From the NCBI GenBank assembly GCA_044229445.1, contig JBGASX010000012.1, positions 4,671 through 68,670 of the forward strand: a stretch of 64,000 nt of DNA, written 5' to 3'. Below the pieces are notes generated by a model. That model ran no database searches. It saw nothing but the letters and a program-made list of their open reading frames with translations, and had not been told where the DNA came from. Position 1 is the stretch's first letter. Every line of letters starts with the position of its first letter. A program made the translations under genes and the position numbers. Source of the stretch: Gemmatimonadales bacterium (GTDB lineage Bacteria > Gemmatimonadota > Gemmatimonadetes > Gemmatimonadales > GWC2-71-9). Shown in pieces: positions 7,244 through 23,693 of the stretch.

Positions 7244-8686
7244 TCAGTCGCAGGTCCCCTGGTTGAGGTAGGTGCAGGTCGGACGGTGATGGTGGGTGCT
7301 GCACGTCGACTGCTTGAGGTCGCTGGTCACATGGCAGGTGGCGCACACGTTGTTCGCACCCTGATGCCGGGCACTGAACATCGAGTGGTACTGGGTCGGC
7401 AGCGTGACGCCCGCGTCCCAGGCCACCGTATTGCTGGAGCCGGAGTGGCAGGTGATGCAGGTCTGCGGCCAGTTGTACTGCGTGTGGCTCGGGTTCGCCG
7501 CACTGGTGTAGTCCGCCAGATGGCACACCTGGCAGGTGGTAAGCGTCCCCTGGGTCCCCTTGTAGACACCATTGGTGTGGCACTTGTCGCAGGCCGTCGT
7601 GATGTGCGTGCCGGTAAGCTGGAACGCAGTGGTGCTGTGCTTGAACGTCGACGGGACCCACGCGTTCGTGTTGTGACAGTTCGTGCACGTCGTGACGAAG
7701 CTCGGCAGCGTGTGGGCCGGGTTGGGGACGGGCGCGCCGTTGGTGCCGTTGTAGTCCTTCTGGTGACAGCTGAAGCAGTCGGTCGGCTTGCCCTTGTAGA
7801 CGCCGTCCGCATGGCACTGGACGCAGTTCAGCGCCTGGTGGCCACCCGTCAGCGGGAACTGGCCCTTCGAGTGATCGAAGGCGGCATTCCAGTCCGAGGT
7901 GTTGTGGCAGAGCACGCAGTCCGTGCTGAAACCGCTCGAGCTGTGCGGCGGAGTCGCCGTCGCGTTGTACTTGTCCAGGTGACAGCTCACGCACGTTGTG
8001 CCGAGTGGCGTCTGGAAGTTCGAATTCTTGTGACACTGGTCGCAGGCCGTTCGGGCATGCACCCCCGTCAGCGGGAAGCCCGACGCGTCATGATTGAATC
8101 GCGCCGTCGTCCACGCGGTCACGCTGTGACACTGGGTGCAATCCTGCGGGAAGTTGTTCTGGAGGTGGTCGGGCGCCTTCGCGGCCAGATAGTTCGGCCG
8201 GTGGCAGCTGATGCAGTCGGCCGCCCGGGCGACGAACTGCAGATGCCCCTGTTCGGTCGGGGCGTGGCACGCCGTGCAGTCCGTCGCGAGGTGGGCACCC
8301 TCCAGCGGGAACCGGGTCAGCTGGTGGGCCCGGGTCATCCGCCCGCGGTCGATGAAGCTGCGGGTGGTATGACACTGGACGCAATCGGCGCCCAGTTCGC
8401 CCCGGTGCGCATCCTCATGGCAGGAGGCGCAGGTGCTCGGCGTGCCCTTGAAGTCGAGGGACTGGTGACAGGCGCGGCAGGCCGCGGTCGTGTGCGCGCC
8501 GATGAGGGAGAAACCGAACTTGTTGTGATCGAACGACCGGCTGATCGTCACGTGGGTCCACCCTTCCGAGCGGTGGCACGCGATGCAGTCGACCTTCAGC
8601 TCGCCATGCGGGGAGCGGGTGCGCTCCTGGGCCGCGAGGGGCCCCGCGAGGAGCAGGGCGAGGCCAACGAGGATCAGTCGCTTCAT
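7244..8686 (-). CDS. periplasmic multihaem c-type cytochrome, 17 CXXCH motifs
   Basis: 480-aa ORF with signal peptide MKRLILVGLALLLAGPLAAQ. I count 17 CXXCH, arranged in repeated modules of the form F-x-H-x(3-4)-F-x-L-x-G-x-H-x(4)-C-x-x-C-H. The start overlaps the upstream stop (ATGA at 8683-8686). Confidence 0.9.
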   Translation of the reverse strand: MKRLILVGLALLLAGPLAAQERTRSPHGELKVDCIACHRSEGWTHVTISRSFDHNKFGFSLIGAHTTAACRACHQSLDFKGTPSTCASCHEDAHRGELGADCVQCHTTRSFIDRGRMTRAHQLTRFPLEGAHLATDCTACHAPTEQGHLQFVARAADCISCHRPNYLAAKAPDHLQNNFPQDCTQCHSVTAWTTARFNHDASGFPLTGVHARTACDQCHKNSNFQTPLGTTCVSCHLDKYNATATPPHSSSGFSTDCVLCHNTSDWNAAFDHSKGQFPLTGGHQALNCVQCHADGVYKGKPTDCFSCHQKDYNGTNGAPVPNPAHTLPSFVTTCTNCHNTNAWVPSTFKHSTTAFQLTGTHITTACDKCHTNGVYKGTQGTLTTCQVCHLADYTSAANPSHTQYNWPQTCITCHSGSSNTVAWDAGVTLPTQYHSMFSARHQGANNVCATCHVTSDLKQSTCSTHHHRPTCTYLNQGTCD

Positions 8687-10716
8687 CGGTTCTCCTTGCC
8701 GCCGTGGCAGCTCTCACACTTTCCCGACAGGGGCCGGAAGATCAGCCGCTCCGAGTGCCCACCCGACACATCGTTCACATGACAGCGATTGCACGGCACG
8801 TTCTCGTGCGCGCCCTTCAGCGAGAAGGACGCATCCCGGTTGTGGTCGAATCGGCCCGCCGGCGAGAAGGCCTCGCTGGTGTGGCAGGCCTCGCACCGCC
8901 CGCCGTCCGCCCGGCTGGCGAACTGATTGCCATGCGGGTTCTCGTGGCAGTCGGCGCACGCCGTCTTTGCCGAGAACCGGAGTTCGGCGAAGCTCGCCCC
9001 ACCCGCGATGAGCGACGAGCGTTTCGGTGTGCCCGCCATCTGCTTCATGTCCGCGTGGCAGGCGATGCATGGCGTCGCCCCATGCGCTCCCTCGAGGGCC
9101 AGCCCGAAGTCCTTGTGGGTCGCGATCGTCGCCGTCGAGGGCCGGAACGCCCGCGTATCGTGGCAGGCGAGGCATCCCTGGCTCTTCATGCGTGCGCCGC
9201 CGGCCGAGAAGCGACCCTTGTGCGGATCCACATGGCAGGCGGCGCACTCGACCTGCGTGACCTTGAAGAGGATCCCGGCCTTACCCAGCACCGTGGTCGT
9301 TGTGAGTGGGGGCAGCCCCTTCCGGTCGCTGCCGTGACAGGCGCGGCATTCGATGTCGCCATGCCGGCCGTCGAGCGCCAGCTTCAGCCTGGCGTGCGCG
9401 GAACGGTCGAAGGTGCTGGGCTTCCATCCGGCCACGCCGTGACAGGCGGCACAGTCGCCGCGGTCAGCCCGTGCACGGAGCTGCCCTCCATGATCATCGG
9501 CATGGCAGTCGAGACATGTAGCCGCCGCGGGCCGCATCACCACCTTCGAACTGCCCCATTTCGGTACGGCCGCCGTGCCGGCGTCGCGTCGATGGCAGGC
9601 CGCGCACTTGACGGTCCCGTGCTTTCCTTCAAGCGGATACTTGGCCCTGGCGTGCTGCTCGACGGTGAAGGTCGAGGGCACAAAACCGGCGACCGTGTGG
9701 CAGGCATCGCATCCCACGATCTTCCCCGCCAGGGTCGCCGTTCCGTTATGCGCGTCCTTGTGGCAGGAGGCGCAACTCTGGAAGGCCGGCTTCTTCAGGG
9801 CCGCCGTGGAGAAATCGCCGTGGCAGTCGGCGCACCGCACGGTGGCATGTTCGCCCTTCAGCGGGTACTTGGTCCGGTCGTGATTGAAGCTGGACCGGTC
9901 GATCTGCTGGAAGCTCCGTGTCGAATGGCAGCTCGCGCAGTTGGCGCCGAATTGCCCCTTGTGGACGTCCTCGTGGCAGTCCGCGCAGCTCTGGTGAGGC
10001 ACCGGCTTGTAGACCGGTACCGGGCGCCCCTGCGCGTCGGTCTTCGGGGAGAGCCGCGGAGCCAGATGGCACTTCTCGCACTTCACGTCCGCATGCTTGT
10101 TGGTCAGCGGATACGCGGTGCTGTCGTGGCTGAACCCGGGAGTCACCGTCCATTTGCCGGTATCGTGACACTTCACGCAGTCAGTGCCGAGCGCGCCGCG
10201 ATGCACGTCGGCATGACAGCTGGTGCACGTCGTCTCGAGGCCGGTGTATCCCTGGCCGGTCTTCCGCGCGGACAGCTTGGCCGCATCGGAGACCTGGTAC
10301 TTCGGCTGGTGGCACTCGGTGCACTTCGTGTCGGCATGGGTCTGCGTCAGCGGCCAGCCCGCACGTCGGTGGTCGAACCGCGCGGCGCTGCCGTCCGGCC
10401 ACTTGACCATGCTGAACGTCTCACCGGCGTGATCCGGATGGCAGGAGGCGCACGGGGTGCCCTTGGCCTCCGTGCTCGCGTGGTAGCCCCGGCCACGATC
10501 GATCAGCCAGGCGAGATCCTTGTGACAGCTCTCGCAGCGGGTGGCCATGCCTTCCTTGCCGCCGCCATGGCACTTGGTGCACTTGAGCGTGCCCTCGAGC
10601 TCACGGTGCGCACGTGCCAGCGGCCCGGGGGAGACCTGTCCCCCTAGCCGACTGTTCGAGACCGCACTGAACCCGAGTGCCAGCATGATCACCAAGCCGA
10701 TCGATCGGAATTGCAT
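8683..10716 (-). CDS. periplasmic multihaem c-type cytochrome, 23 CXXCH motifs
   Basis: 677-aa ORF with signal peptide MQFRSIGLVIMLALGFSAVS. I count 23 CXXCH and 7 repeats of the (F/T)-x-H...PL-x-G-x-H...CxxCH module. The start overlaps the upstream stop by 1 nt (TAATG). Confidence 0.9.
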   Translation of the reverse strand: MQFRSIGLVIMLALGFSAVSNSRLGGQVSPGPLARAHRELEGTLKCTKCHGGGKEGMATRCESCHKDLAWLIDRGRGYHASTEAKGTPCASCHPDHAGETFSMVKWPDGSAARFDHRRAGWPLTQTHADTKCTECHQPKYQVSDAAKLSARKTGQGYTGLETTCTSCHADVHRGALGTDCVKCHDTGKWTVTPGFSHDSTAYPLTNKHADVKCEKCHLAPRLSPKTDAQGRPVPVYKPVPHQSCADCHEDVHKGQFGANCASCHSTRSFQQIDRSSFNHDRTKYPLKGEHATVRCADCHGDFSTAALKKPAFQSCASCHKDAHNGTATLAGKIVGCDACHTVAGFVPSTFTVEQHARAKYPLEGKHGTVKCAACHRRDAGTAAVPKWGSSKVVMRPAAATCLDCHADDHGGQLRARADRGDCAACHGVAGWKPSTFDRSAHARLKLALDGRHGDIECRACHGSDRKGLPPLTTTTVLGKAGILFKVTQVECAACHVDPHKGRFSAGGARMKSQGCLACHDTRAFRPSTATIATHKDFGLALEGAHGATPCIACHADMKQMAGTPKRSSLIAGGASFAELRFSAKTACADCHENPHGNQFASRADGGRCEACHTSEAFSPAGRFDHNRDASFSLKGAHENVPCNRCHVNDVSGGHSERLIFRPLSGKCESCHGGKENR

Positions 10717-11696
10717 TACCAGAACCAGGTCGCACCCATCGCGACGACGACCCCGACGTGCACCAGGACCGCCACGAGGGCGGTCAGGGCGAAGGGGCGA
10801 TGCGCCACGTGCCAGAATCGGAAGATGTCCCGCGTGGCCTCGAGCATCCGGGCCTGCTGAGTGAGCGCCATCTCCCGGCTGGCGAGTCGCACGACCTCGC
10901 GCAGGGCACGGCGGTCGAGCTGCTGGCCGCCGGGGCGATTCGCGCAGATGCGCCGGAGGGCGCGCGCCGCCCGCCGACGGGCGAGGTCGTCCTTGATCAT
11001 CAGGACGACCGTTTTCATGAAGCCCGCGCCTTCGTGAGGCGTCGGGTCTGACCGCAGGACGGACTCGACCTGGGCGACCGGCAACCCGGATGTCGCGGCG
11101 ACCGAGGCCATCAGTTCATGCCGCTCGGCGGCGATTTCTTCCGCCGTGAGTTCGAGACCGCTCGCGCTACGCGGGATATGGACGTAGAGGTAGCGGCCGG
11201 CGATCCCGCTCAGCGCGACGATGATCATCGACCAGTATCCCAGTCCGATCACGCCATCGAATCGCCAGGCGGCGTGGATGGCCGCAAGAAAGGGCAGGAC
11301 CAGCGCGGTCGCGACGTGGACGTCCATCCACTTCGACATCGCGCCCGTCCAGGCGAGCCAGCGGTGTTTCTTGCGGAAGGGGTAGAGCCACAGGAACACG
11401 AAGATCAGGACCGAGAGGATGCCCGCACTCTGGCCGATGTAGCCGGACGGTCGGAGCCAGGGATGCAGCGGGCTGCGAACCTGATCTCCAGGCGAAGCGA
11501 AGTAGTACCCGCTGCCTGCGATCGTCACGCCGAGGAGAATGGCGACCGATACGAAGACCGGGGTCAGGGTCTTGTCTCCCCGGGCCTTGGGCTTGGCGGC
11601 GGCTGGGTCGGGGCGGCCGGGCGGCTGCACTTTCAGCGACTGGGTCGCCGAGGGGGATGCGTCGGGGCGGATGCTGGCCAGGCTGGACCGGGTCAT
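10716..11696 (-). CDS. polytopic membrane protein with two H-x13-H helices (ferric-reductase-domain-like di-haem b candidate)
   Basis: 326-aa ORF with about 5 hydrophobic helices. Helix MDVHVATALVLPFLAAIHAAW and helix WHVAHRPFALTALVAVLVHVG each contain His-x13-His. It is the first gene of cluster 1. Haem b binding is inferred, not shown. Confidence 0.6.
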   Translation of the reverse strand: MTRSSLASIRPDASPSATQSLKVQPPGRPDPAAAKPKARGDKTLTPVFVSVAILLGVTIAGSGYYFASPGDQVRSPLHPWLRPSGYIGQSAGILSVLIFVFLWLYPFRKKHRWLAWTGAMSKWMDVHVATALVLPFLAAIHAAWRFDGVIGLGYWSMIIVALSGIAGRYLYVHIPRSASGLELTAEEIAAERHELMASVAATSGLPVAQVESVLRSDPTPHEGAGFMKTVVLMIKDDLARRRAARALRRICANRPGGQQLDRRALREVVRLASREMALTQQARMLEATRDIFRFWHVAHRPFALTALVAVLVHVGVVVAMGATWFW

Positions 11697-11941
11697 CGTG
11701 TGCTCGATGGTGCTCGAATTGTCTGGTTTTGATGAGCGCTGTCACGCCTTGTTACGGCACAAACCGTGCGAGACGCTAGTGGCGGAACCGCAAGCTTGGC
11801 TGGGAGTTGTGGAGCGCTAATCCGTTGGTGGGAATGGCCTGGAGGTCAGGTGTGAGACACCTCACCCCATTCACCAAGCGGTACAACGCATTCCACGTGT
11901 AATGAAATGTTGCACTTCATGAACGCCGGTGATTTTGCCAA

Positions 11942-13279
11942 ATGCTCATCTACCTTGCCTTCGCAGTATTGCTTGGCGTCGCGCTGGTCGCCCAGGTCCG
12001 CGGACTCAAGAAGCGTGAGGCAACCGCCCGGGCATCCGCGGAGCGCGCCGGCCTGACATCCTCAGGGCCGCGCGCCCAGCACCCGCACATCGATGTGAGC
12101 TGGTGCATCGGCTGCGGGGCCTGCGTGACGGCCTGCCCCGAAGGCGACGTGCTGGCGGTCATCGGGGGCAAGGCGGCACTCATCAACGGCCCCAAGTGCA
12201 TCGGGCACGGGCTCTGTGCCGATGCCTGTCCCGTCGGCGCCATCGAGATCGTGATGGCTCCCCCGAGCATGATGGCGGACATGCCCGCTCTCTCTCCCCA
12301 GTTCGAAACCAGCGTCCCGAACCTCTTCATCGTCGGGGAACTCGGCGGGCTCGCGCTCATCAAGAACGCCGTCAACCAGGGACGCGACTGCATCGACCAC
12401 ATCGCCGGACTGGTGCCGCAACTCCGCCGGCGGCGGGTGGGCGATGTCGTCGACGTCTGCGTGGTCGGCGCCGGCCCGGCAGGATTGTCGGCCTCGCTGC
12501 GCGCGGTGGAGAAGGGCCTGAGCTATGTCACGCTGGAGGCGGAGGACTTCGGGGGAACAGTTTCCAAGTATCCCCGGCAGAAGCTCGTCATGACGAGCCC
12601 CGTCGAGTTTCCGCTCTCGGGCAAATTCTCCAAGCTGGAGATTGGCAAGGAGGAACTGCTCGGCTTCTGGAAGAAGATCGCGCAGAAGGCCGGCCTGAAG
12701 ATCCGGACCCAGGAGCGGGTGGAGCACATCCAGCGCGAACCGGATGGGGCCTTCACCATCGAGACGACGAAGGGACGGTATCGGGCGCTGACGGTGGTGC
12801 TCGCCATCGGGCGGCGGGGCAGTCCCAACAAGCTCGGTGTGCCTGGGGAGGAACTCGATAAGGTGATGTACAGCCTGATCGAGGCGGAGCACTACAAGGA
12901 CAATCACATCCTCGTCGTCGGCGGGGGAGACAGCGCCATCGAGGCGGCCATGGGACTGGCCTATCAGAAGGGCAACAAGGTCACCCTGTCGTACCGGAAG
13001 GATGTGTTCAGCCGGCTCAAGGAACGCAACAACCAGCGAATCCGGGAGTGCATGCGCACCGGCAAGGTCACGGTGATCTTCAACTCCGAGCCGCTCGAGA
13101 TCCGGGAGAAGTCGGTGATCCTCAAGGTGCAGGGCGGCAAACGTGAGGTCCCGAACGACTACGTCTGGGTCTTCGCGGGAGGGACACCGCCGAACGCCTT
13201 CCTCCAGAAGATCGGGGTCCAGATCGGCCGGGTGGACCTGAGCGCCTCGGCGGCGGCCGAGGCGCGCGAAGTGGCCTGA
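11942..13279 (+). CDS. membrane-anchored 2x[4Fe-4S] ferredoxin-domain / FAD-NAD(P)-binding oxidoreductase
   Basis: 445-aa ORF with an N-terminal hydrophobic anchor (LIYLAFAVLLGVALVAQV), two ferredoxin motifs (CIGCGACVTACP, CIGHGLCADACP) and two Rossmann motifs (VCVVGAGPAGLS, ILVVGGGDSAIEAA). Confidence 0.8.
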   Translation: MLIYLAFAVLLGVALVAQVRGLKKREATARASAERAGLTSSGPRAQHPHIDVSWCIGCGACVTACPEGDVLAVIGGKAALINGPKCIGHGLCADACPVGAIEIVMAPPSMMADMPALSPQFETSVPNLFIVGELGGLALIKNAVNQGRDCIDHIAGLVPQLRRRRVGDVVDVCVVGAGPAGLSASLRAVEKGLSYVTLEAEDFGGTVSKYPRQKLVMTSPVEFPLSGKFSKLEIGKEELLGFWKKIAQKAGLKIRTQERVEHIQREPDGAFTIETTKGRYRALTVVLAIGRRGSPNKLGVPGEELDKVMYSLIEAEHYKDNHILVVGGGDSAIEAAMGLAYQKGNKVTLSYRKDVFSRLKERNNQRIRECMRTGKVTVIFNSEPLEIREKSVILKVQGGKREVPNDYVWVFAGGTPPNAFLQKIGVQIGRVDLSASAAAEAREVA

Positions 13280-13323: not shown

Positions 13324-13749
13324 ATGAAGGCTGGTCACAAGTTCATCATCGGGGCGGGAATCATCGTGGGCGCCGTCAGCGTCCTGATGGCCCAGGGTGT
13401 GAAGCAGTTCGGACAGTATTCGATGAAGCCTTCCGAACTCGCCCAGCGCGTCGAGCGGGATCCGAGCCTGTACGATACCGGGCTCAAGATGGAGGCGAAG
13501 GTCGTGCCGGGCTCGGTCACCCGGGACGCGGCCAGCCAGACGATTGATTTCAAGGTCAGCGATGGCGTGCAGACCTATGCCGTGAGCTATCGGGGGCTCG
13601 CGCCCGATACCTTCACTGACCAGAAGGACATCGAGGTCGTCGTCGAAGGCCGGCTTGGGCGCGATGGCGTCTTTCGAGCCACGACGCTCCTCGCCAAGTG
13701 CGGCTCCCGCTACGAAGCGAAGTACAACGAGCAGGGCAAGCAGGCCTAG
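13324..13749 (+). CDS. ccmE: cytochrome c maturation haem chaperone CcmE, CXXXY variant
   Basis: 141-aa ORF with an N-terminal anchor, an OB-fold-like body aligning to CcmE (KVVPGSV.RD...), and LLAKCGSRYEAKY where canonical CcmE has LAKHDENY. A GGAG motif lies upstream of the ATG. Confidence 0.85.
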   Translation: MKAGHKFIIGAGIIVGAVSVLMAQGVKQFGQYSMKPSELAQRVERDPSLYDTGLKMEAKVVPGSVTRDAASQTIDFKVSDGVQTYAVSYRGLAPDTFTDQKDIEVVVEGRLGRDGVFRATTLLAKCGSRYEAKYNEQGKQA

Positions 13750-13835: not shown

Positions 13836-15269
13836 CTAGCGGGGGTCGGGAATACTCCGCCCATGGCACGCGGCGCACATCTGGGGGTTCCGCCGCAGCA
13901 GGCGGGCCGCATCGAACCCCGGGCCGTGCGGATCGAAGCGGCCACCTGCCTGCGCCGAGTGGCACTTGAGGCAGTCCCGCTCGCTGTGGCAGGTGACACA
14001 GGTCTCGAGTGATTGCCGCGCCGCCTGCCCATGTCCAGCGATGAACCCCGGCTTGTTTTCGTGGAAGCCGCCCTGCAGGGGGCCGCGCGGCGTCAACCCG
14101 GTTTCCTGGTGGCAGGTGCTGCAGAACTGCCCCTGATTGTGGCACTCCGAGCAGTCCGACTCGCGGTTGTACGCAGCCGCGGGGTGACTGGTGAGGAAGC
14201 CGCCGGGGTGATAGCTCCCGTTGTTGCTCGCGTTGGGCCGGTGGCACTCCAGGCACTCGGTCCGAGCATGGCAGGCGCTGCACGATCTCGAACCGCTGCT
14301 CGCCTGGAGTCCGTGGCGGTCCACGAAATCCTTGCCGTGGCTCAGCGGCATCTTGCGGACGACGTGGGCCCCCTCCGCGCGTCCCGGGCCCCCGAGGGCC
14401 ATCCCGCTCGCGACGGAGGGCTGGGCGCGGTGACAGGCGGTGCAGCTCTGCTGGGTGTGGCAGGCCGCGCAATTCTTCGGGGAGTGCCGCACCATCTCGC
14501 CGTGGCGGGACTGGAACCGATCCTCCCCATGGTTCGCCGGGGCCTTGAGTTCTTCCTTGAGCGCGAGCGACCTCGGGTCGGGCTCCAGCGCTTGAATGAG
14601 CGCAAGTTCCGGGGCATTGACGTGGCACTGTGAACAGAAATCCCGGGCATGGCAGACCGCACAACTCTGGGCCACGCTTGCCCTGGAGCCGGCCGGCGGC
14701 TTCGCCTGCACCCCGTGTCCCTTCGCCGTCATGAATCCCGGTGCGTCGTGCGAGGCGGGTTTCGCGAAGCTGGCGACGCGCTCGGTGGTCAGGCCCGGAG
14801 CCTTGGCGAGCGGTAGATGACAGGTCGCACACGCCGTATCCGGCGCCGCGACGTGCTTGGCGCGAATGCCGTGACAGGCCAGGCACGGCTCCGCCTTCGC
14901 TGGCTGCACCGACATCCAGGCTCGGCCGTCAGGCATGTGGCACTCGGCACACACCAGCACCGAATCGGCACCGAGCTTGTGCGTGGATTCCCGCGCATGC
15001 TCGACATGCGTGAAGCGGAGGTTGGAGACGCGCGGCGCGCTCGGGGCTTCCCATGTGACCCGCTTCTCCACGGTTCCGTCGTGGCAGGTGGCGCACGATT
15101 CGGCGGTCGGCCAGACCGATCGGGTGGTATCCCGGATTCCGGCATGACAGCCTTCGCAGCCCGGGAATACCTTCGCGTGCTTCACATGGTCGAACTTCTC
15201 CATCGGCTGCTGGGCGGAGGCGGATCCACTCAGCAACCCGAGGGCGAGCACGAGGAAGGCGGCTCTCAT
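13836..15269 (-). CDS. periplasmic multihaem c-type cytochrome, 16 CXXCH motifs
   Basis: The track ORF is trimmed to the ATG at 15269 (MRAAFLVLALGLLSGSASAQQ, a signal peptide), which overlaps the upstream stop as ATGA. I count 16 CXXCH. Confidence 0.9.
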   Translation of the reverse strand: MRAAFLVLALGLLSGSASAQQPMEKFDHVKHAKVFPGCEGCHAGIRDTTRSVWPTAESCATCHDGTVEKRVTWEAPSAPRVSNLRFTHVEHARESTHKLGADSVLVCAECHMPDGRAWMSVQPAKAEPCLACHGIRAKHVAAPDTACATCHLPLAKAPGLTTERVASFAKPASHDAPGFMTAKGHGVQAKPPAGSRASVAQSCAVCHARDFCSQCHVNAPELALIQALEPDPRSLALKEELKAPANHGEDRFQSRHGEMVRHSPKNCAACHTQQSCTACHRAQPSVASGMALGGPGRAEGAHVVRKMPLSHGKDFVDRHGLQASSGSRSCSACHARTECLECHRPNASNNGSYHPGGFLTSHPAAAYNRESDCSECHNQGQFCSTCHQETGLTPRGPLQGGFHENKPGFIAGHGQAARQSLETCVTCHSERDCLKCHSAQAGGRFDPHGPGFDAARLLRRNPQMCAACHGRSIPDPR

Positions 15270-16759
15270 CGTCCGATCGCCCGGCGCCGGGCCGGCGGCA
15301 GGGTCAGCATGTCGGCGGCCTTGGAGCCGAACAGCCATGAGAGGCTCATCCGGAGGCGTGTCTGGGACCAGGTGAAGGCGGAGGCGTCTGGCCGACGCCG
15401 GTCTTCATCGTAGCGGACCGCGCCGGCGGCGAGGCGAAGCCGGTCCGAAAAGTGGTAGTCGGTCGAGACACCGTACCATGTCATGCGCGGGTCGTTGTAG
15501 CGGAGTTCCAGTGGGCGCACCAGCGTGCCGCCCTCGACCGTCAGCGACAGCGCCGGGCGCGGTCGCCAGGTCAGATGGCCATCGGCCCCGGAGGATGAGG
15601 CGCCAGGGCCGAACTCGCGATGATAGACCGCGTCGAAGCTCCACCGCGGAATGAACGTGAGCGTTGTGCCGGCACTCCAGCGGAATCCCCGATCCTGGAG
15701 GCCCGCGCCGAGGGGCGCGGAGAACGCCGCGTCGGCATACCAGTAGCGCTCCCCGCTGGTGCGGAAGTCGACGCCCGCGATCGGCTGCACCCAGAACGAG
15801 CCGTTTACCGCCGAATACGGCACGGGACTGAAGGCCCCCCACAGGGTCCAGAGGTCGAAGAAGGGCCGGTAGCGGCGAATGCCTCCCGCGGCGCCCCATT
15901 TCCGCTGATTGACGCGCAGGGTCAGATCGGCCGAACCCCACCAACCGAACGCGAGGTCGTATTCACCGCCACCGCTCAGCGTCCAGCCATTGAAGGGCCG
16001 GAAGGTGGCGGTGACCGCCGCTCGCTCCGAGACAAGATTCCTCGGGTCACGATCGACCTCACGCTGATACTCGACGCGGGCATCCACTCGCGGTCCCTGC
16101 CACTCGAGCGCCGCGCCGGCGACGATCTGCCGCCGTGTAGGCTGGAACTTGTCGAGGGGGTTGATGGCATCACTGGTCACCGGGAGCGCGGTCGCTCGAG
16201 CGAGACCCAGGCCGACGAATCCGATGGCGGCCAGGCCGGCCTTCGGCAGCCGGTAGGTGAAGCGCCCGCCATCGTAACCGGTATACCCCAGACGGCCACG
16301 CTCGATCTGGCGGCCCAGACGGCCATTGATGCGGGCGCCGGCGTATTCGGCATAGCCTTCGAAGAGCTGTACCGGCGTCTGATTGCCAGGCCAGATGTCG
16401 GAGCCCCTGATGTCGACTCCGAGGCGGGCGTTGGCATGGAGGCTGACGCCGCGGATGCCGAACCCCCAGGCGGTGACGTCCGCGCTGGTCGTCAGCGGCG
16501 CCGTGTGCCGTTGAGGACCGGGGCGGTAGTAGTGACAGAAGTTGCTTCCCGCCGGACAGGTGAGGGCGATTCCGTTGGGCGTCTGCAGGCCGCCTCCCGG
16601 GGCAGGCAGGGCCTGCGACAGCGGCAGGGAGTCGTAGCTCAGTCCGCGATACGCTGCCGTCTGCATCCGGGCGTCGAGGCGCACGAGGTACTGCTGTGCG
16701 CCCGCGGCGTTGGTCCCGGCGAGCACGAGGCCGGCCGCGAGGCCGAGGGTGCGCCTCAT
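15266..16759 (-). CDS. outer-membrane beta-barrel protein of cytochrome cluster 2
   Basis: The track ORF is trimmed to the ATG at 16759 (MRRTLGLAAGLVLAGTNAAGAQQ, a signal peptide), which overlaps the upstream stop as ATGA. Composition is strand-like and rich in aromatics/Gly/Arg, with a near-terminal MSLSWLF motif and an N-terminal Cys pair (CPAGSNFC). Confidence 0.6.
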   Translation of the reverse strand: MRRTLGLAAGLVLAGTNAAGAQQYLVRLDARMQTAAYRGLSYDSLPLSQALPAPGGGLQTPNGIALTCPAGSNFCHYYRPGPQRHTAPLTTSADVTAWGFGIRGVSLHANARLGVDIRGSDIWPGNQTPVQLFEGYAEYAGARINGRLGRQIERGRLGYTGYDGGRFTYRLPKAGLAAIGFVGLGLARATALPVTSDAINPLDKFQPTRRQIVAGAALEWQGPRVDARVEYQREVDRDPRNLVSERAAVTATFRPFNGWTLSGGGEYDLAFGWWGSADLTLRVNQRKWGAAGGIRRYRPFFDLWTLWGAFSPVPYSAVNGSFWVQPIAGVDFRTSGERYWYADAAFSAPLGAGLQDRGFRWSAGTTLTFIPRWSFDAVYHREFGPGASSSGADGHLTWRPRPALSLTVEGGTLVRPLELRYNDPRMTWYGVSTDYHFSDRLRLAAGAVRYDEDRRRPDASAFTWSQTRLRMSLSWLFGSKAADMLTLPPARRRAIGR

Positions 16760-18819
16760 CGTGCCCTCCCCGAACGCAGCAACCGTGGCTGATAGTCCTG
16801 CGGATGCGACTGCAGGTGGCACTCGGTGCATTCGCGCGGGCCGTAGTGGTCGACCTTCTGGTCGTGGCAGGCGAGGCAGAACGAGCGCGTCGGTACGAGG
16901 GAGGTAATCTTGGCGGTCGCGTGGCAGGCGTCGCATGCGACGTGCGCCTGGGCCGGCAGCGCGTGGGCCTGCGTGATGGAGGTCGTCCGGTGGCAGGTGG
17001 CGCAATCACGCCCGGACTTGTGATGATCCACATGACACCCCGTGCAGGTCGCCGCCGAATCCACCGGTGGCAGCGACACGACTCCGGCATGACACGCCCG
17101 GCAGTCGAGATCCGTGTGCGCCGAGTGGCGGAAGGTGACCGTGCGCTCGCGGGAGGGCTTTCCGGCCGCGGCGATCCGGACGCTCACCGCGTTGGAGGCC
17201 GGGAGTTCCTCCCTGGCATGACAGGACTTGCAATCGCTCTGTGCCGGCGCCTGATGATGACAGATCTGGCAGCCACGCGGCGCTTCGAACGTGACCTTCT
17301 TGCCCGAAGAGGTCACGTGGCAGGTGAGGCAGGCCAGTTTCTTATGTCGGGTGTGTGAGAAGGTGTCGCTCGGCAGGGCGGTGCGGGTGCTCAAATCCCG
17401 CGTGGGAGGGTCTGCACCAGGCGGGGCATCACCTTTCACCTTGCTCGGCCGCTCGAGGCTCGGAAGCTCCTGGAGCGGCGCCATCGACTGCTTGAGGGCC
17501 TTGAGGGTATCGAAGGGTTGTGGCGGCTTCACGCGCGAGTGACTGCGTTCGCGGACCGCATTGTGGCATCCGGTGCAGTCGCTGGCGTCCACGCGCGCCG
17601 CGTGCGGCACGTGGCAGAGCGTGCACTGCTCCTGCTTGCCGCGATGCTGGGCGCCGACGTGGAAGGGGACCTTCTTGTAATCGGCGTGACACCCCTCGGA
17701 AGCGCAGGATTTCCGCGTCTCACCGACGGTCTTCTGGGCATGGGGATTGTGGCACATGCCGCAGGTGCCGTTGTGCGGATCGGCGCCCGGCGCGAAGCTG
17801 GGAATCAGCTTCTCCATGTCGTGGCACGAGAGGCACTGCTTCAGCGCCGGCCGCAGCGCCCCGGCGGCGGAGTCACGGGTGGCGAGCGCAGCCACCGGCT
17901 TGGTGAACTGATGGCAGACGATGCAGTGCAGGTCGGTCTGCCCCTGCATCTTGCCCAGCCGGATCCGGGTCTCGTCCGTGAGATGGCAGCCCTTCTGCAC
18001 GCAGGTGGTGTCCGCGGGAAGGAAACGATGGGCCGTTCTCGCGTGACAGGTCAGGCATTCGACCTTGCCCTTGAGCGCCGAGGAATCCGATTCGAGGTGC
18101 GTCCGATGCCCGGCGGTGGCCGCGATCGCCTGCCAGGTCTCCTTGGCGGCACCGCGCACATGACACCGCTCGCAGGTCGCCCGCGGCACTCGCGCGTGGG
18201 GCGGGATCCGCTCGTCCCGGACACCAGACATCCAGAAGATGAGCTTCACTCCCTCCTTGAGCGGCTTGAGCGGGTGACAGGTATGGCAGCTGATGGAATC
18301 GTGCTTGCCCTCGAGCCGGGGGACCAGGGTGTAGTCGCCCGTGTCAGGCACGACCCACTTCTGCCCGCTGGCGATGAAGATGTGGCACCCGTTGCAGAAG
18401 CGCTTGTCGGTCTCGACGAACTTGTAGCTGCCATACCCCGCGCCCGCCACGCCGGCAACGGCCAGAAAGGCGGCGGCGACGAGGCCGAACTTGACCGAGG
18501 CGCTGCGCGTCGCCAGCCACTCCAGGATGCTCCGCCGGTTGTGCCACAGCGCTCGAAGGATGACGAAGGCGATGGCGGCAGCGATGAGCGCGCCCATCCA
18601 CATCACCCAGGGCTGCTTCTGGAAGAGCCACTGGATGATGGGGGTGACCCGGTCGCCGAGCAGGGTCTTGTCGACGGTGGAGTCGGCGGGATGCATCGGC
18701 ATCTGCGACGGCAGCGCTGCGGTACTGTCGTGGATCGCCTGGAGGGAGAATACACCCGCCCCGGCAAGCGAGAGCTTGCCGGGGCGGGTGGTATTACCTG
18801 TCGGAGAAACGAGCATCAA
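16756..18819 (-). CDS. membrane-anchored NapC/NirT/CymA-like multihaem cytochrome, 18 CXXCH + 2 CX4CH
   Basis: 687-aa ORF with two N-terminal hydrophobic helices followed immediately by FCNGCH, the arrangement seen in NapC/NrfH-type quinol dehydrogenases. It then has 17 more CXXCH plus CVQKGCH and CASEGCH. Confidence 0.85.
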   Translation of the reverse strand: MMLVSPTGNTTRPGKLSLAGAGVFSLQAIHDSTAALPSQMPMHPADSTVDKTLLGDRVTPIIQWLFQKQPWVMWMGALIAAAIAFVILRALWHNRRSILEWLATRSASVKFGLVAAAFLAVAGVAGAGYGSYKFVETDKRFCNGCHIFIASGQKWVVPDTGDYTLVPRLEGKHDSISCHTCHPLKPLKEGVKLIFWMSGVRDERIPPHARVPRATCERCHVRGAAKETWQAIAATAGHRTHLESDSSALKGKVECLTCHARTAHRFLPADTTCVQKGCHLTDETRIRLGKMQGQTDLHCIVCHQFTKPVAALATRDSAAGALRPALKQCLSCHDMEKLIPSFAPGADPHNGTCGMCHNPHAQKTVGETRKSCASEGCHADYKKVPFHVGAQHRGKQEQCTLCHVPHAARVDASDCTGCHNAVRERSHSRVKPPQPFDTLKALKQSMAPLQELPSLERPSKVKGDAPPGADPPTRDLSTRTALPSDTFSHTRHKKLACLTCHVTSSGKKVTFEAPRGCQICHHQAPAQSDCKSCHAREELPASNAVSVRIAAAGKPSRERTVTFRHSAHTDLDCRACHAGVVSLPPVDSAATCTGCHVDHHKSGRDCATCHRTTSITQAHALPAQAHVACDACHATAKITSLVPTRSFCLACHDQKVDHYGPRECTECHLQSHPQDYQPRLLRSGRAR

Positions 18820-20529
18820 TCAGCGCTGGTTTGTTGACGGTGCCGTGAGGCGGACCGCAGTCCGCACCTGGTTCGGGTTCATGATAGCAGCTTCCGTCGC
18901 CGGTGCCAGCTTGAGCTGCCCGCTGCGGACCGCGCCCTGAATCTGCGCGAGGATTGGAGCGGGCGGGGCGGGCAGAATTCCCGGATACTTCGCGAGGAGA
19001 TCCGCGATGCTCGCCTGGAGCAGCGCCCGATAGAGGAAGGGGTTGTGCACGCCCTTCGAGCCGTCGGGGTGGTCGGCGTAGCCCTCGCCGGTGAGCTGGA
19101 CGTTGAACACGGCGCCCTTCGCCGCGGTCAGCGCGTTCGGCGCGGCGTAGTTGAGGTCCGCAGGGACAGCAGCCTTGATCTTGGCCAGATAACCCGAGTC
19201 CGCGGGGTAGGCGTCCACACCCTCGACGCAGTTGCCCACCGGCACGCACTTGGTGGAGTTGATCCAGAGCGTCCTGGCGTAGCCGTCGATCTCGTTCCGC
19301 AGGTTGCTGAAGAGCTGCTGCGCGACCGCTTCGCCACCCACGTGACAGCCGGACGCCGTGCAGGCGCCCCAGGAACGGCTCGGGACGTCGTAGGCGCAGT
19401 TGTTCGTGAAGGTGGTGTCCACCACCGCCGGGCTCTTCTGCTGCAGGCAGGGCAGCGGGTGGAAGCTGTGCCCGCTGAAGGTGACCGAGTTTCCGTTCAC
19501 GTCCACGCCGGTCAGCTTGTTCACATGGCAGCCCGCGCAGAGCCGCGGATTGGCCGTCGAGCCATGGCTGGCGTAGAAGATCGTGGTGTCGTAGGACGTG
19601 CCGGGCGGGAAGTAGCCGGCATCGCCGAAGACGACGGGTCCTTGCACGCCGTGAGGGCCGCGGGTGCTCGGAGCCGCACCCGGCGAGGACCGGTCGACCC
19701 GGCCATGGCACTTGGTGCAGAGGTTCTGCGTGATGTCACGAGTATCGATGGCGAAGCGGAGCTGGCCGGGCAGCGTGTTGCCCAGGCTGTCCTTCGCGGT
19801 GCCGTGCGGATCGTGGCAGACGACGCAGTTCTGCGGAAGGTACGTGGTGGCCTGGCTGACTTCCTTGAACACCTGGCCCTGCGAGCCATACCAGGCGCGG
19901 AGGGCGCCCTTGCCCTCGTGGCAGGGCTGGCAGCTCGTCTGTACCTGCTCGGCCAGCCGGGGCTGGCCATGCCGGGAGGCGAGCCATTCCTTCAGATAGT
20001 TGTGGTGCTTGGATGGGGTGTTGTCGGTGTGGCACCCGCCGCAGCTCGAGTTGGTAATCGCGGCGGCCGTATCGATATTGATGCTGGGAATCGGCCGGTT
20101 CGCGAGGACCGTCGGGTTCTGTACGTGCTGCAGGCCGGGGCCGTGGCAGCTCTCGCACTGCACATCGTGGTAGGAGGCACTCGCGACGGAGTCGTAACCG
20201 ACGTGCGCGAAGGGCTGGTTGCCACGCGAGTTCACGCTGTGACAGCCGCTGCAGAAGGGCTGGGCGAAGCCGCTCGCCTGCAGATCGCCCCAGGCCGATG
20301 CGTGCTTGGTGTTGATCCAGTCGGCCTGCTGACCAACGTGGCAGTTGCCACAGGTGGTCTGCTGGGTGGCCGCGGTGTAATAACCGAGGAACCCGCTCGC
20401 CGCGTCAGGCGGCGGATTGAACGGCGCGCGATCGCGATACACCACATCTGTACAGGCGCCAAGCCAAGCGGCGGCTGCCAGCGCGAACGCCATCGACCCG
20501 AACCGGGACCGGACACGCGAAGCAATCAT
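18820..20529 (-). CDS. lipoprotein multihaem c-type cytochrome, 8 CXXCH + 1 CX4CH
   Basis: 569-aa ORF with a lipobox (AAWLGAC). It has 8 CXXCH plus CTASGCH, and W-x-x-[ST]-x-H-type elements (WINTKHASAW, WLASRHG). It is the first gene of cluster 2, and its stop abuts the next start. Confidence 0.85.
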   Translation of the reverse strand: MIASRVRSRFGSMAFALAAAAWLGACTDVVYRDRAPFNPPPDAASGFLGYYTAATQQTTCGNCHVGQQADWINTKHASAWGDLQASGFAQPFCSGCHSVNSRGNQPFAHVGYDSVASASYHDVQCESCHGPGLQHVQNPTVLANRPIPSINIDTAAAITNSSCGGCHTDNTPSKHHNYLKEWLASRHGQPRLAEQVQTSCQPCHEGKGALRAWYGSQGQVFKEVSQATTYLPQNCVVCHDPHGTAKDSLGNTLPGQLRFAIDTRDITQNLCTKCHGRVDRSSPGAAPSTRGPHGVQGPVVFGDAGYFPPGTSYDTTIFYASHGSTANPRLCAGCHVNKLTGVDVNGNSVTFSGHSFHPLPCLQQKSPAVVDTTFTNNCAYDVPSRSWGACTASGCHVGGEAVAQQLFSNLRNEIDGYARTLWINSTKCVPVGNCVEGVDAYPADSGYLAKIKAAVPADLNYAAPNALTAAKGAVFNVQLTGEGYADHPDGSKGVHNPFLYRALLQASIADLLAKYPGILPAPPAPILAQIQGAVRSGQLKLAPATEAAIMNPNQVRTAVRLTAPSTNQR

Positions 20530-20848: not shown

Positions 20849-21634
20849 GTGACATCTGTCGTCTGCCCCTCCTGCGGCAAGCCTACCGGTGGGAAGTTCT
20901 GCCGGCACTGTGGTACCACTCTGGGAGGCGAGGGCTGCGCACGCTGCGGGAGTCCGATGCCCGCGGGTGCGCGTTTCTGCGCCAATTGTGGAACGTCCTC
21001 GGCGCAGGGACGCCAGGCGATCGGCGGGAACGAACGGCTCCTCTGGTTTCTCGCGGGCGGTGGTGTGGTTGCGGTGGTCGGCGGTCTGGCCCTCTACGCC
21101 ACGCGCGGGACCTCCGTCGCACCGGTCGCGGCACCGGCAGGCGCCGAGGCGCCGTTCGCGTCGGGAGGAGGCACGGGAGCGACCCCGCCCGACATCAGCA
21201 ACATGACGCCTCGAGAGCGGTTTGACCGATTGTTCGACCGCGTCATGCGCGCCGCCGAATCGGGGGACGAGGCGACGGTCACCAGTTTCGCGCCGATGGC
21301 CGTGAGTGCGTACGGGATGCTGGATGCTGCGGATCTCGACAGTGACGCCCGGTATGACGCGGCGCTGATCAAGCTGCACACGGGCGATGTCGATGGCGCC
21401 GCCGCCCTGGCGGACACCATCCTCAAGAAGCAGCCCGGGCACCTCTTCGGTATCATCCTGCAGGGCACCATCGCGCGCTTCAAGAAGGACGACAGGGGAT
21501 TGAAGAAGAGCTACGCCGACTATCTCAGTCATTACGATGCGGAAACCAAGGCCAAGCGTCCCGAGTATGAGAAGCACGCGCGCTCGATCGAACAGTTCCT
21601 GAAGGACGCGCGCGACGCCGGCGGAAAATCCTGA
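20849..21634 (+). CDS. double zinc-ribbon / single-TM protein with helical C-terminal domain
   Basis: 261-aa ORF (GTG start) with CPSCGKPTGGKFCRHCG and CARCGSPMPAGARFCANCG, then the TM helix LLWFLAGGGVVAVVGGLALYA, then a helical-repeat-like domain. It lies immediately upstream of ccmF. Confidence 0.6.
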   Translation: MTSVVCPSCGKPTGGKFCRHCGTTLGGEGCARCGSPMPAGARFCANCGTSSAQGRQAIGGNERLLWFLAGGGVVAVVGGLALYATRGTSVAPVAAPAGAEAPFASGGGTGATPPDISNMTPRERFDRLFDRVMRAAESGDEATVTSFAPMAVSAYGMLDAADLDSDARYDAALIKLHTGDVDGAAALADTILKKQPGHLFGIILQGTIARFKKDDRGLKKSYADYLSHYDAETKAKRPEYEKHARSIEQFLKDARDAGGKS

Positions 21635-21644
21635 GGGCTGAGTC

Positions 21645-23693
21645 ATGACACTGCTAGGACAATTCGCGCTGTGGGCCGCCTTCTTCATCGGTGGCTGGGC
21701 GGCGATCATCGGATTCTCAGGGCGCTGGCACGGACGGCCGGAACTGGCCGTCAGCGTGACCCGCTCGGTCTACGCCCTCTTCGGCGTGCTCGTGGTCGCG
21801 GCGATCTGCCTCTGGCAGGGGCTGATCACCCACGACTTCAACATCGAGTACGTCGCGAGCTACACCTCGAGAAACCTGCCGGGCTATTTCATCTTCTCGG
21901 CGTTCTGGGCCGGACAGAAGGGATCGTTGCTCTTCTGGGCCATCGTCCTGAGCATGTTCGCGGCGCTGGCCCAGTGGCTGACGGCCGCGCGATACCGGGC
22001 GCTCATGCCGTACGTGGCGGCGGTGACCAGTTCGGTCGTCGTTTTCTTCGTCACCGTGATGCTGTTTGCCGCCAACCCGTTCATGCGGCTGCCCTTCACG
22101 CCGCCCGACGGAAACGGCCTCAATCCGCAGCTGCAGAACATCGGGATGGTGATCCATCCGCCGATGCTCTACCTCGGCTACATCAGCATCACGATTCCGT
22201 TCGCCTTCGCGATCGCGGCGCTGCTGTCCCGCCGGCTGGACACCGGCTGGCTGCACGCCATCCGGAAGTGGACGCTGATGAGCTGGCTCTTCCTCTCGAT
22301 CGGCATCACCCTCGGCATGTGGTGGGCCTACGTCGAGCTGGGCTGGGGCGGGTACTGGGCGTGGGATCCGGTGGAGAACGCCAGCCTGCTGCCCTGGCTG
22401 ACCATGTCGGCGTTCCTGCACTCGGTGATGATCGAGGAGAAGCGGGGCATGCTGAAGCGCTGGAACATGACCCTCATCATCGGGTCGTTCCTGCTGAGCA
22501 TCTTCGGAACCTTCATCACCCGGAGCGGGGTGATCGCGAGCGTTCACAGCTTCACCCAGTCGAACGTCGGCTACTTCTTCCTCGCCTTCCTGCTGAGCAG
22601 CGGGGTCCTGGCCTTCACTCTGCTGTATACCAGGTGGGAGCGCCTCGAGGCCGAGGTGCAGCTGGAGAGCGTGGTAAGCCGCGAGGCGGCGTTCCTCTTC
22701 AACAACCTCCTGTTCGTCGGCATCGCCTTCTCGGTGCTCTGGGGGACGCTCTTCCCGATTCTCTCGGAAGCGGTGCGGGGCACCAAGATTACGGTCGGTC
22801 CGCCGTTCTTCAACAAGGTGAACGTGCCGCTCGGGCTGCTGCTCCTGGCGCTGACGGGCATCGGGCCGCTCATCGCCTGGCGCAAGGCCTCGACCGCCAA
22901 CCTCAAGCGTCAGTTCACCTGGCCGCTGGTGGCCGGGGCGATCGTGGTGGCGCTCTGCCTGGTGGGCCGGATGGAGAACTTCTACGCCATCGTCGCGCTG
23001 GGGCTCGCCGGTTTCACCGCCGGCACGCTGGTCCAGGAATTCACCCGCGGCACCCTGGCGCGGCACCGGATGTACTCCGAGTCGTATCCGGTCGCCTTTG
23101 CGCAGCTGGTGGCGCGGAACCGCCGGCGGTACGGCGGCTATATCGTGCACACGGGCATGCTGATCTACTTCGTCGCCTTCGCCGGCTATGCCTTCAAGAC
23201 CGAGATGGAGGCGACGCTCAAGCCCGGTGATTCGGCGACCCTCAAGAGTCCTTTCGGGCATACCTACGTGTTCACCCATGTCGGTGTCTCGCAGTTCGAG
23301 CAGATGAACCGGGTGGTGACGCAGGCCTCGGTGCAGGTCACCAAGGACGGCAAGTCGATCGGGGTCATCAACTCGGAGAAGCGGCAGCACTTCTCGGAGC
23401 CGGCACCCGGCGTCAGGCAGAAGTCGTTCGAGCCGTCGACCGAGGTCGGGATCCGCAGCACGCTGCAGGAGGACCTGTACATCGTCTATGCCGGCTCGGT
23501 GGCCGGCACCGAAGAGGCCGTCTACCGCTTCACGATCAACCCGCTGGTCATCTGGGTCTGGATCGGTGGCATCGTGCTGGTCGTCGGCGGGCTGATCACC
23601 ATGTGGCCCGGCGGCACCACGAGCACCGGCTCGCTCAAGCGGGCTGAGGCCGGCTACGAGGTCCAGCTTGCGGGCTCGGGGTCGACGACGTGA
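21645..23693 (+). CDS. ccmF: cytochrome c-type biogenesis protein CcmF (haem lyase subunit)
   Basis: 682-aa polytopic ORF with the WWD-type motif WGGYWAWDPVENASLLPWL and typical CcmF length and topology. Confidence 0.92.
   Translation: MTLLGQFALWAAFFIGGWAAIIGFSGRWHGRPELAVSVTRSVYALFGVLVVAAICLWQGLITHDFNIEYVASYTSRNLPGYFIFSAFWAGQKGSLLFWAIVLSMFAALAQWLTAARYRALMPYVAAVTSSVVVFFVTVMLFAANPFMRLPFTPPDGNGLNPQLQNIGMVIHPPMLYLGYISITIPFAFAIAALLSRRLDTGWLHAIRKWTLMSWLFLSIGITLGMWWAYVELGWGGYWAWDPVENASLLPWLTMSAFLHSVMIEEKRGMLKRWNMTLIIGSFLLSIFGTFITRSGVIASVHSFTQSNVGYFFLAFLLSSGVLAFTLLYTRWERLEAEVQLESVVSREAAFLFNNLLFVGIAFSVLWGTLFPILSEAVRGTKITVGPPFFNKVNVPLGLLLLALTGIGPLIAWRKASTANLKRQFTWPLVAGAIVVALCLVGRMENFYAIVALGLAGFTAGTLVQEFTRGTLARHRMYSESYPVAFAQLVARNRRRYGGYIVHTGMLIYFVAFAGYAFKTEMEATLKPGDSATLKSPFGHTYVFTHVGVSQFEQMNRVVTQASVQVTKDGKSIGVINSEKRQHFSEPAPGVRQKSFEPSTEVGIRSTLQEDLYIVYAGSVAGTEEAVYRFTINPLVIWVWIGGIVLVVGGLITMWPGGTTSTGSLKRAEAGYEVQLAGSGSTT

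Follow-up and report, generated by a model that had tools for sequence, protein, structure and literature searches.

An Fe-S flavoprotein encoded beside a predicted dihaem cytochrome b and giant multihaem cytochromes in several bacterial phyla: a possible NAD(P)H entry point to porin–cytochrome systems

We examined a 64,000-nucleotide stretch of a Gemmatimonadales genome (positions 4,671 to 68,670 of contig JBGASX010000012.1, assembly GCA_044229445.1), hereafter the window. In it a gene for a 326-aa inner-membrane protein and a gene for a 445-aa membrane-anchored Fe-S flavoprotein diverge from a shared intergenic region, as an earlier note on this DNA had described (Table 1). The membrane-protein gene is followed in a tightly packed minus-strand operon by genes for a 23-haem cytochrome, a 17-haem cytochrome and a porin-like protein; the 40-haem chain to which the note had connected the pair is accounted for by the CxxCH motifs of these two cytochromes. 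The stop codon of the membrane-protein gene overlaps the start codon of the 23-haem gene in a TAATG, through which the two genes are translationally coupled, and an ATGA overlap joins the two cytochrome genes. Within the intergenic region a single weak sigma-70-like site was detected, on the minus strand (11745-11718). GC content is ~67% across the window, and a near-identical counterpart exists in another Gemmatimonadales metagenome-assembled genome (MAG; JBGATI010000001.1), with encoded proteins that are 94-100% identical. The membrane-protein type has been known since 2017; the new element appears to be its link with the flavoprotein, which is the subject of this report.

Table 1. Features of the locus, in window coordinates
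Feature	Coordinates	Strand	Basis or remark
Porin-like outer-membrane protein, ~540 aa	5559..7181 (about)	-	ORF (open reading frame), sequence; start codon uncertain
480-aa multihaem cytochrome c, 17 CxxCH	7244..8686	-	ORF, motif count
677-aa periplasmic multihaem cytochrome c, 23 CxxCH	8683..10716	-	ORF, Pfam scan, motif count
326-aa inner-membrane protein, predicted dihaem cytochrome b of the PCC3-IMP type	10716..11696	-	ORF, topology, AlphaFold2 model
Divergent intergenic region, 245 bp	11697..11941		Presumed promoters for both flanking genes
445-aa membrane-anchored Fe-S flavoprotein	11942..13279	+	Pfam, NCBIfam, PDB matches, motifs
ccmE	13324..13749	+	Pfam CcmE, 6e-25; context, outside the core module

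Linkage of the two genes was assessed in 80 loci, each from a separate species-level genome, by seeking a flavoprotein homologue within 10 kb of the membrane-protein gene. Such a homologue was present in 77 of the 80. The arrangement of the window, divergent and upstream, recurs in 58 loci, where the spacer has a median of ~320 nt (measured between alignment ends); in a further 18 loci the flavoprotein gene is co-directional and sits between the membrane-protein and cytochrome genes, and in one it lies downstream. Three loci yielded no flavoprotein gene, two of them being cut by contig ends. Where a homologue of the 23-haem cytochrome was found, it was always downstream of the membrane-protein gene and on the same strand (76/76 loci). 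The hosts are MAGs of Gemmatimonadota, Bacteroidota, Calditrichota and Acidobacteriota. Pairing of the membrane protein with the flavoprotein persists at 25-30% identity, in metagenome contigs, in Acidobacteria and on a plasmid of Emticicia. Among these distant loci, L081 and L091 have the gene order membrane protein, flavoprotein, cytochromes. In L092 the genes for the membrane protein, the 20-haem and 25-haem cytochromes and a 526-aa protein precede, in that order, the flavoprotein gene, and in L087/L088 and the acidobacterial L093/L094 the order is cytochrome, AMIN protein, 270-aa protein, membrane protein and flavoprotein. The L094 operon contains a cytochrome with at least 39 haems and a 1064-aa AMIN-domain protein before the 270-aa protein, the membrane protein and, last, the flavoprotein; L093 has the 270-aa, membrane-protein and flavoprotein genes in common with it. 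Because this neighbourhood is conserved across phyla despite three rearrangements, there is strong genomic evidence that membrane protein, flavoprotein and cytochromes form a functional unit. The proposal in the earlier note had depended on co-conservation of the two divergent genes, and that is what the loci exhibit, in three arrangements and several phyla.

Identity to the window flavoprotein is 62-98% among flavoproteins of the divergent loci and only 39-48% among those of co-directional loci (L046, L047, L055 and others), which constitute a separate group; the membrane proteins are about equally distant in the two groups of loci. Two co-directional flavoproteins from frameshifted gene calls (P0257 and P0267) carry a double zinc-ribbon-like CxxC...CxxC insert at the junction of anchor and ferredoxin domain.

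A complete module is present in a cultured member of the Bacteroidota, on plasmid pEMTOL02 of Emticicia oligotrophica DSM 17448 (L095, NC_018749.1, 78197-89995). Its genes are arranged in the order ccsA, 281-aa membrane protein, 440-aa flavoprotein (annotated 'NAD(P)-binding domain-containing protein'), two cytochromes with first 23 and then 40 haems, and 538-aa outer-membrane protein; the membrane-protein orthologue has the accession WP_015031196.1. The orthologue of the 677-aa window cytochrome thus likewise has 23 haems, and pairwise comparisons of Emticicia and window proteins gave E-values of 6e-36, 2e-117 and 1e-16.

Remote relatives of the membrane protein were sought by tblastn in 7.3 Gb of plasmid sequence. 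Proteins of 242-252 aa with two HX13H motifs and an SGxxG motif (E-values of 3e-5 and 7e-4) were found on plasmids of Methylophaga pinxianii (L096, 6088-9442) and Acetobacter aceti (L097, 5684-8406). Each is encoded between a gene for a protein with FAD_binding_6, NAD_binding_1 and 2Fe-2S domains and a gene for a 7-haem cytochrome c. This partner, which also has a weak NAD_binding_6 match, is of the ferredoxin-NADP reductase (FNR) fold and shares its fold class with the dehydrogenase domain of NADPH oxidases (NOX). Judged by sequence, one type of dihaem membrane protein, accompanied by a cytochrome c, has acquired NAD(P)H-type Fe-S flavoproteins of two kinds that are unrelated to each other, and this double recruitment supports the logic of a path from NAD(P)H through flavin, Fe-S cluster and two successive haems b to cytochrome c. 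The Methylophaga reductase has an additional N-terminal region of ~200 residues, possibly periplasmic, and one transmembrane helix.

The 326-aa protein contains two histidine pairs with the spacing given in the earlier note, H127-VATALVLPFLAAI-H141 on predicted helix 3 and H299-RPFALTALVAVLV-H313 on predicted helix 5. Two such pairs alone are weak evidence, because 2.5% of 100,000 shuffles of the 326-aa sequence contained at least two HX13H pairs. Conservation settles the matter in favour of genuine pairs rather than chance: each of the four histidines is invariant in 79/79 homologues of 22-58% identity, and all four are also invariant in 30 homologues of 59-91% identity. The conservation in orthologues on which the note's reading turned is therefore found. 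The histidines are accompanied by W123, W295 and S163-G164-x-x-G167, which are invariant or nearly so among the 79 sequences (G164, G167 and W295 without exception). The window protein thus has the pattern W-x3-H-x13-H twice (W123/H127/H141 and W295/H299/H313), together with an SGxxG motif, S163-G164-I-A-G167, on helix 4.

Hydropathy and AlphaFold2 alike predict five transmembrane helices. The AlphaFold2 model, built with the 79 diverse homologues as input, reached a pLDDT of 87.9 and a pTM of 0.81; an earlier run with 30 close homologues gave a pLDDT of 64 and meaningless Foldseek matches. Modelled transmembrane helices span residues 44-60, 86-110, 120-141, 148-172 and 285-319, and helices 4 and 5 are separated by a cytoplasmic insert of ~110 residues with four helices (across 185-283). 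The homologues have a core of ~285 aa, and in the window protein the C-terminus follows helix 5 by seven residues. Hydropathy, charge distribution and the model place the N-terminus in the cytoplasm, and by the positive-inside rule each pair has one histidine near each membrane face.

Homologues of the membrane protein form 2,416 clusters at 50% identity with E-values up to 0.001, or 1,311 with E-values up to 1e-10, and the source names returned for them were all 'hypothetical protein'. No Pfam or NCBIfam model matched the window protein above threshold, and PDB sequence searches with the single protein or a 79-sequence profile returned only coiled-coil noise on the cytoplasmic insert. Weak Pfam matches nevertheless recur among the 79 members: DUF4405 (PF14358) in 31 at E <0.05 (best 5.7e-6), Ferric_reduct (PF01794) in 18 below threshold (best E 1.5e-4), Ni_hydr_CYTB (PF01292) in 14 and PepSY_TM in three. 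The window protein itself matches neither of the first two and scores 17.6 bits against a cutoff of 30.1 for Ni_hydr_CYTB; a few family members carry a precomputed PF14358 annotation. We take these four Pfam families to form one clan of dihaem cytochromes b. As the recurrent matches all fall in dihaem cytochrome b families, profile evidence assigns the membrane-protein family to that superfamily.

A narrower assignment to the ferric reductase domain (FRD) family, which the earlier note had made, is not established: the likeness of the bis-histidine pairs holds, but the protein has five helices instead of six, the Pfam matches are sub-threshold, profile comparisons are uninformative and Foldseek retrieves no related solved structure. 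In hhalign the family profile gave an E-value of 0.15 (over 24 columns) against the single E. coli MsrQ sequence and also 0.15 against the single E. coli CybB sequence. The prokaryotic cytochrome b561 profile scored the 326-aa protein below its cutoff, and the distribution of histidines over the helices differs from that family; FdnI and CybB have four helices, with histidine ligands spread over helices 1, 2 and 4.

The 445-aa flavoprotein begins with one hydrophobic helix (residues 1-19) followed by RGLKKRE, and these basic residues place the bulk of the protein, by prediction, in the cytoplasm. Pfam recognizes Fer4-type domains at 47-105 and Pyr_redox_3 at 174-427 (E 8.5e-47), with dinucleotide motifs GAGPAG at 176 and GGGDSA at 327. 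The anchor and the two Rossmann motifs described in the earlier note are thus confirmed, but only one of its two 4Fe-4S motifs has the canonical form. This is the first (C55-x2-C58-x2-C61-x3-C65-P), whereas in the second, C86-x2-H89-x2-C92-x3-C96-P (residues 86-97, window 12197-12232), histidine replaces the second cysteine. H89 is present in 15 of 16 flavoprotein homologues, and in some of them the second cysteine of the first motif is replaced by Ser or Thr. Because H89 is conserved and the first motif has these variants, the sequences suggest that one cluster is either a Cys3His-ligated [4Fe-4S] or a [3Fe-4S] cluster, rather than that there are two classical four-Cys clusters.

The best PDB matches of the flavoprotein are YpdA/Bdr structures (7a76, 8e-31; 7a7b, 1.8e-28), followed by thioredoxin reductases (TrxR) and TrxR-type FNRs, the latter at ~1e-11. 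The flavin module is therefore predicted to have the FAD/NAD(P)H-type thioredoxin-reductase/YpdA fold and not the FNR fold of NOX. Against the YpdA model TIGR04018 it scores 174.4 bits, the cutoff being 339.9. No CxxC redox disulfide is present in the flavin module, and an alanine in GAGPAG occupies what we take to be the position of the Bdr cysteine; for these two reasons the protein looks like an electron-transfer flavoprotein, not a disulfide reductase. An S-Y-R-K stretch following the second Rossmann motif resembles the HRR motif for NADPH of thioredoxin reductases and is only a hint of NADPH binding. Acidobacterial homologues in L093 and L094 (genes 8001-9848 and 8001-9830) are 61-62% identical and 609-615 aa long; a fused membrane domain was considered for them and rejected, the extra part being a second, partial C-terminal NAD(P)-binding domain.

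The porin-like ORF has a signal peptide and a C-terminus ending in LTWRF, and is 23% identical (E 1e-16) to the last protein of the Emticicia operon; these features, including the C-terminal Phe, are the basis for regarding it as a putative beta-barrel. The 526-aa protein after the two cytochrome genes of L092 is similar in size and has no Pfam match. Beyond ccmE, the window contains a second cytochrome cluster on the minus strand (13836-20529) that encodes a 500-aa protein (16 CxxCH), a 579-aa ORF, possibly a porin, with no Pfam match, a 687-aa protein (18 CxxCH) and a 569-aa protein (8 CxxCH). It adjoins the module in a subset of related genomes only, for example L001, L009, L012, L021 and L038. 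Around the cytochrome clusters lie scattered genes for system I maturation of cytochrome c (ccmE, ccmF and ccmH; 13324-13749 and 20849-24852), with two zinc-ribbon proteins encoded on their flanks, of which one also has a TPR-like match. In Emticicia, the system II gene ccsA occupies the place equivalent to that of the window's ccm genes. Giant cytochromes may travel together with their own maturation genes.

The membrane protein corresponds to a published type. [quoted passage not shown] They likened it to the ferric reductase domain and cytochrome b and proposed that it is a quinone-active dihaem cytochrome (PMC5566968). The FRD-like bis-histidine reading of the window protein is thus correct as a resemblance and was already in print. 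In length, helix count, SGxxG and both W-x3-H-x13-H motifs the window protein agrees with the IMP, a likeness in motifs, topology and gene context. PCC3 consists of a porin, a periplasmic cytochrome with 21-27 haems, a second large multihaem cytochrome and the IMP (PMC5566968), and the window operon is alike in its 23-haem and 17-haem cytochromes and porin-like ORF. Whereas the descriptions of PCC3 in Proteobacteria give it four genes, none of them for a flavoprotein (PMC5566968; PMC12442390), the window-type clusters occur in Gemmatimonadota, Bacteroidota, Calditrichota and Acidobacteriota and have a near-constant fifth gene, that of the membrane-anchored Fe-S flavoprotein. An unnamed 'other redox protein' is listed in Table S6 of the 2017 study for porin-less clusters only (PMC5566968); the Acetobacter and Methylophaga loci resemble these combinations of multihaem cytochrome, IMP and other redox protein. 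The function of PCC3 was still untested as of 2025 (PMC12442390). Our literature search, subscription journals not being covered, found no description of a flavoprotein partner, and the near-universal Fe-S flavoprotein of these phyla appears to be so far undescribed.

Several other systems resemble the module in part. DUF4405, MsrQ-like and PepSY-like cytochromes b have conserved histidines on their helices and predicted roles in transmembrane electron transfer, and for a DUF4405 protein with four central histidines haem b binding was shown experimentally (Huang et al. 2024, PMC11334425). The window protein shares with them four conserved histidines on transmembrane helices and a predicted electron-transfer role, and DUF4405 is the Pfam family most frequently, if weakly, matched by its relatives. 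However, DUF4405-type proteins have six helices and are found with ApbE-flavinylated extracytosolic proteins, whereas the window protein has five helices and a long cytoplasmic insert and is partnered by multihaem cytochromes c and a cytoplasmic Fe-S flavoprotein.

With NOX and ferric reductases (FRE) the window protein shares a cytoplasmic N-terminus and, on helices 3 and 5, bis-histidine pairs with a spacing of 13 residues, although NOX and FRE have six helices and it has five. In these enzymes NAD(P)H electrons travel via flavin and a stack of two haems to an extracytoplasmic acceptor, and bacteria are known to have a split version, MsrQ together with the soluble flavin reductase Fre. The partner module of NOX is of the FNR type (FAD_binding_8/NAD_binding_6), unlike the window flavoprotein with its thioredoxin-reductase fold and two Fe-S clusters, and the acceptors of NOX, FRE and MsrQ are O2, Fe(III) or MsrP, whereas that proposed for the window module is a multihaem cytochrome c.

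The layout can also be likened to that of the Hmc, Tmc and Qmo complexes of sulfate reducers, in which a multihaem cytochrome c on the periplasmic side, a cytochrome b in the membrane and an Fe-S (flavo)protein in the cytoplasm are joined across the membrane. These contain NarI/HdrE-like cytochromes b and HdrD- or HdrA-like cytoplasmic subunits, and their presumed role is to bring electrons inward for sulfate reduction or to exchange electrons with menaquinone; the window proteins showed no sequence relationship to them. YpdA/Bdr and TrxR-type FNRs have the two-Rossmann FAD/NAD(P)H fold and the absence of CxxC in common with the 445-aa protein, which differs from both by its membrane anchor and a di-cluster ferredoxin domain with a histidine-containing motif. 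YpdA itself lacks both the ferredoxin domain and the anchor. Finally, CymA, ImcH, CbcL and CbcBA are inner-membrane entry points that oxidize quinol and feed periplasmic multihaem cytochromes. The window module would occupy the same position in the pathway, and has a dedicated NAD(P)H-type flavoprotein. No similarity of the module to NapC/NirT was detectable, and the sole link of the window protein to the cytochrome b family of CbcL/CbcB is the sub-threshold Ni_hydr_CYTB matches.

We propose, with a probability of roughly 0.55, that the products of the divergent gene pair are the cytoplasmic component and the membrane component of a single transmembrane conduit that feeds a PCC3-like porin–cytochrome system. 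In this conduit NAD(P)H would be oxidized by the FAD of the membrane-anchored flavoprotein, and electrons would then pass through its two Fe-S clusters, the histidine-containing one being the likely exit. The next carrier would be a haem b at the cytoplasmic face with H127/H299 as its ligands. From it the electrons would traverse the membrane to another haem b, ligated at the periplasmic face by H141/H313, and continue to the 23-haem periplasmic cytochrome and then to the 17-haem cytochrome and porin. Haem binding, contact between the two proteins, the NAD(P)H donor, outward flow and independence of quinone are what we infer for this path. Outward flow is favoured on the grounds of redox potentials and the membrane potential, and is the usual direction of FNR-type 2Fe-2S reductases. 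The best reading is that the conduit works like a two-component NOX or ferric reductase with a multihaem cytochrome as acceptor, without being a NOX homologue. The split NOX of the earlier note therefore survives as an analogy, supported by the conserved module and by the FNR-fold partner of the remote relatives; as a statement of descent it does not, the window flavoprotein being of a different fold. The more ambitious view of a five-part, quinone-independent machine that wires cytoplasmic NAD(P)H to the cell surface in several phyla is tentative, and we put it somewhat below even odds.

Several observations weigh against this conduit. Export of NAD(P)H electrons in this way would dissipate the membrane potential and conserve no energy; such charge dissipation would fit redox balancing, or rapid charging of the cytochrome wire, better than respiration. 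In proteobacterial PCC3, for which no flavoprotein is described, the membrane protein can apparently work with another partner, possibly quinol. Foldseek searches of the PDB with the model of pLDDT 87.9 returned nothing at E <0.5 and no NOX, MsrQ or cytochrome b structure, the weak matches being dominated by the cytoplasmic helical insert. In one locus, L076, no flavoprotein gene was found across ~8 kb upstream and 10 kb downstream. Lastly, no genuine fusion of membrane protein and flavoprotein was found, the apparent ones being frameshifted calls. P0267 (863 aa) and P0257, in which the membrane protein seems linked to Fer4/Pyr_redox domains, were rejected as Rosetta-stone fusions on account of an Arg/Pro/Gly-rich out-of-frame linker of the kind produced by frameshifted high-GC gene calls; P0337 (742 aa) was rejected since the family domain is confined to its C-terminal part and its contig has fragmented calls, including a 138-aa Pyr_redox piece.

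[quoted passage not shown] To our knowledge, the well-studied routes of extracellular electron transfer in Gram-negative bacteria all start at quinol dehydrogenases, and the weak Pfam matches include the quinone-reactive Ni_hydr_CYTB family. This is also the published hypothesis for the IMP type of PCC3 and PCC4 (PMC5566968), and it stays plausible because no flavoprotein gene has been reported for the proteobacterial PCC3 clusters. Yet no quinone-site motif was identified in the membrane protein, and the flavoprotein is near-constant in the clade and lies within the operon in many lineages. Moreover, the remote branch independently recruited another NAD(P)H flavoprotein, which is simpler to explain if a cytoplasmic donor is the normal partner. 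On balance we regard the quinone-active alternative as unlikely, though a serious competitor.

Alternatively, electrons may flow inward, from extracellular Fe(II), minerals or cathodes by way of the porin–cytochrome system and the two haems b to NAD(P)+ on the flavoprotein, which would supply reducing power without reverse electron transport. Flavoproteins of the thioredoxin-reductase fold are reversible in principle. However, electron movement from the positive to the negative side opposes the membrane potential, NAD(P)+ at -320 mV lies far uphill from the usual potentials of cytochrome c or Fe(II), and FNR-fold FAD/NAD/2Fe-2S proteins such as the remote partner normally pass NAD(P)H electrons to an acceptor. 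The Gemmatimonadota, Bacteroidota, Calditrichota and Acidobacteriota are not known to include Fe(II)-oxidizing members. PCC3 was discovered in Fe(II) oxidizers, and its inner-membrane component is upregulated during iron oxidation by Sideroxydans CL21 (PMC5566968; PMC12442390), which speaks for inward flow; even so, this direction seems distinctly improbable.

Finally, it is hardly credible that the flavoprotein stands outside the conduit and belongs with the ccm genes, or serves as a YpdA-like low-molecular-weight thiol reductase with incidental adjacency: ccmE follows it by 45 nt on the same strand with ccmF and ccmH nearby, its best characterized relatives are the YpdA/Bdr bacillithiol-disulfide reductases and homologues are called 'YpdA family' in JGI annotations, yet its YpdA score is far below the family cutoff, ccm linkage is rejected on counts (ccmE adjoins the flavoprotein gene in only 25/80 loci, against 77/80 with the membrane-protein gene within 10 kb), and in the 18 co-directional loci, as in L081, L091 and Emticicia, its gene is internal to the operon with no adjoining ccm gene, or with ccsA on the opposite side.

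How PCC3-type systems connect to the inner membrane and cytoplasm has been guesswork since 2017. Co-inheritance of the membrane protein and flavoprotein with giant multihaem cytochromes in several phyla suggests a direct route out of the cell for cytoplasmic NAD(P)H electrons. If this is true, an NAD(P)H flavoprotein docked on a dihaem membrane protein would be a different kind of entry point, electrogenic like NOX, and would amount to a bacterial NADPH oxidase that yields a reduced cytochrome wire outside the cell. A function would thereby be assigned to more than 2,000 sequence clusters of 'hypothetical proteins' in phyla abundant in soil, sludge and sediment. The plasmid-borne module of the cultured Emticicia oligotrophica DSM 17448 makes the question of the entry point accessible to direct genetics and membrane assays.

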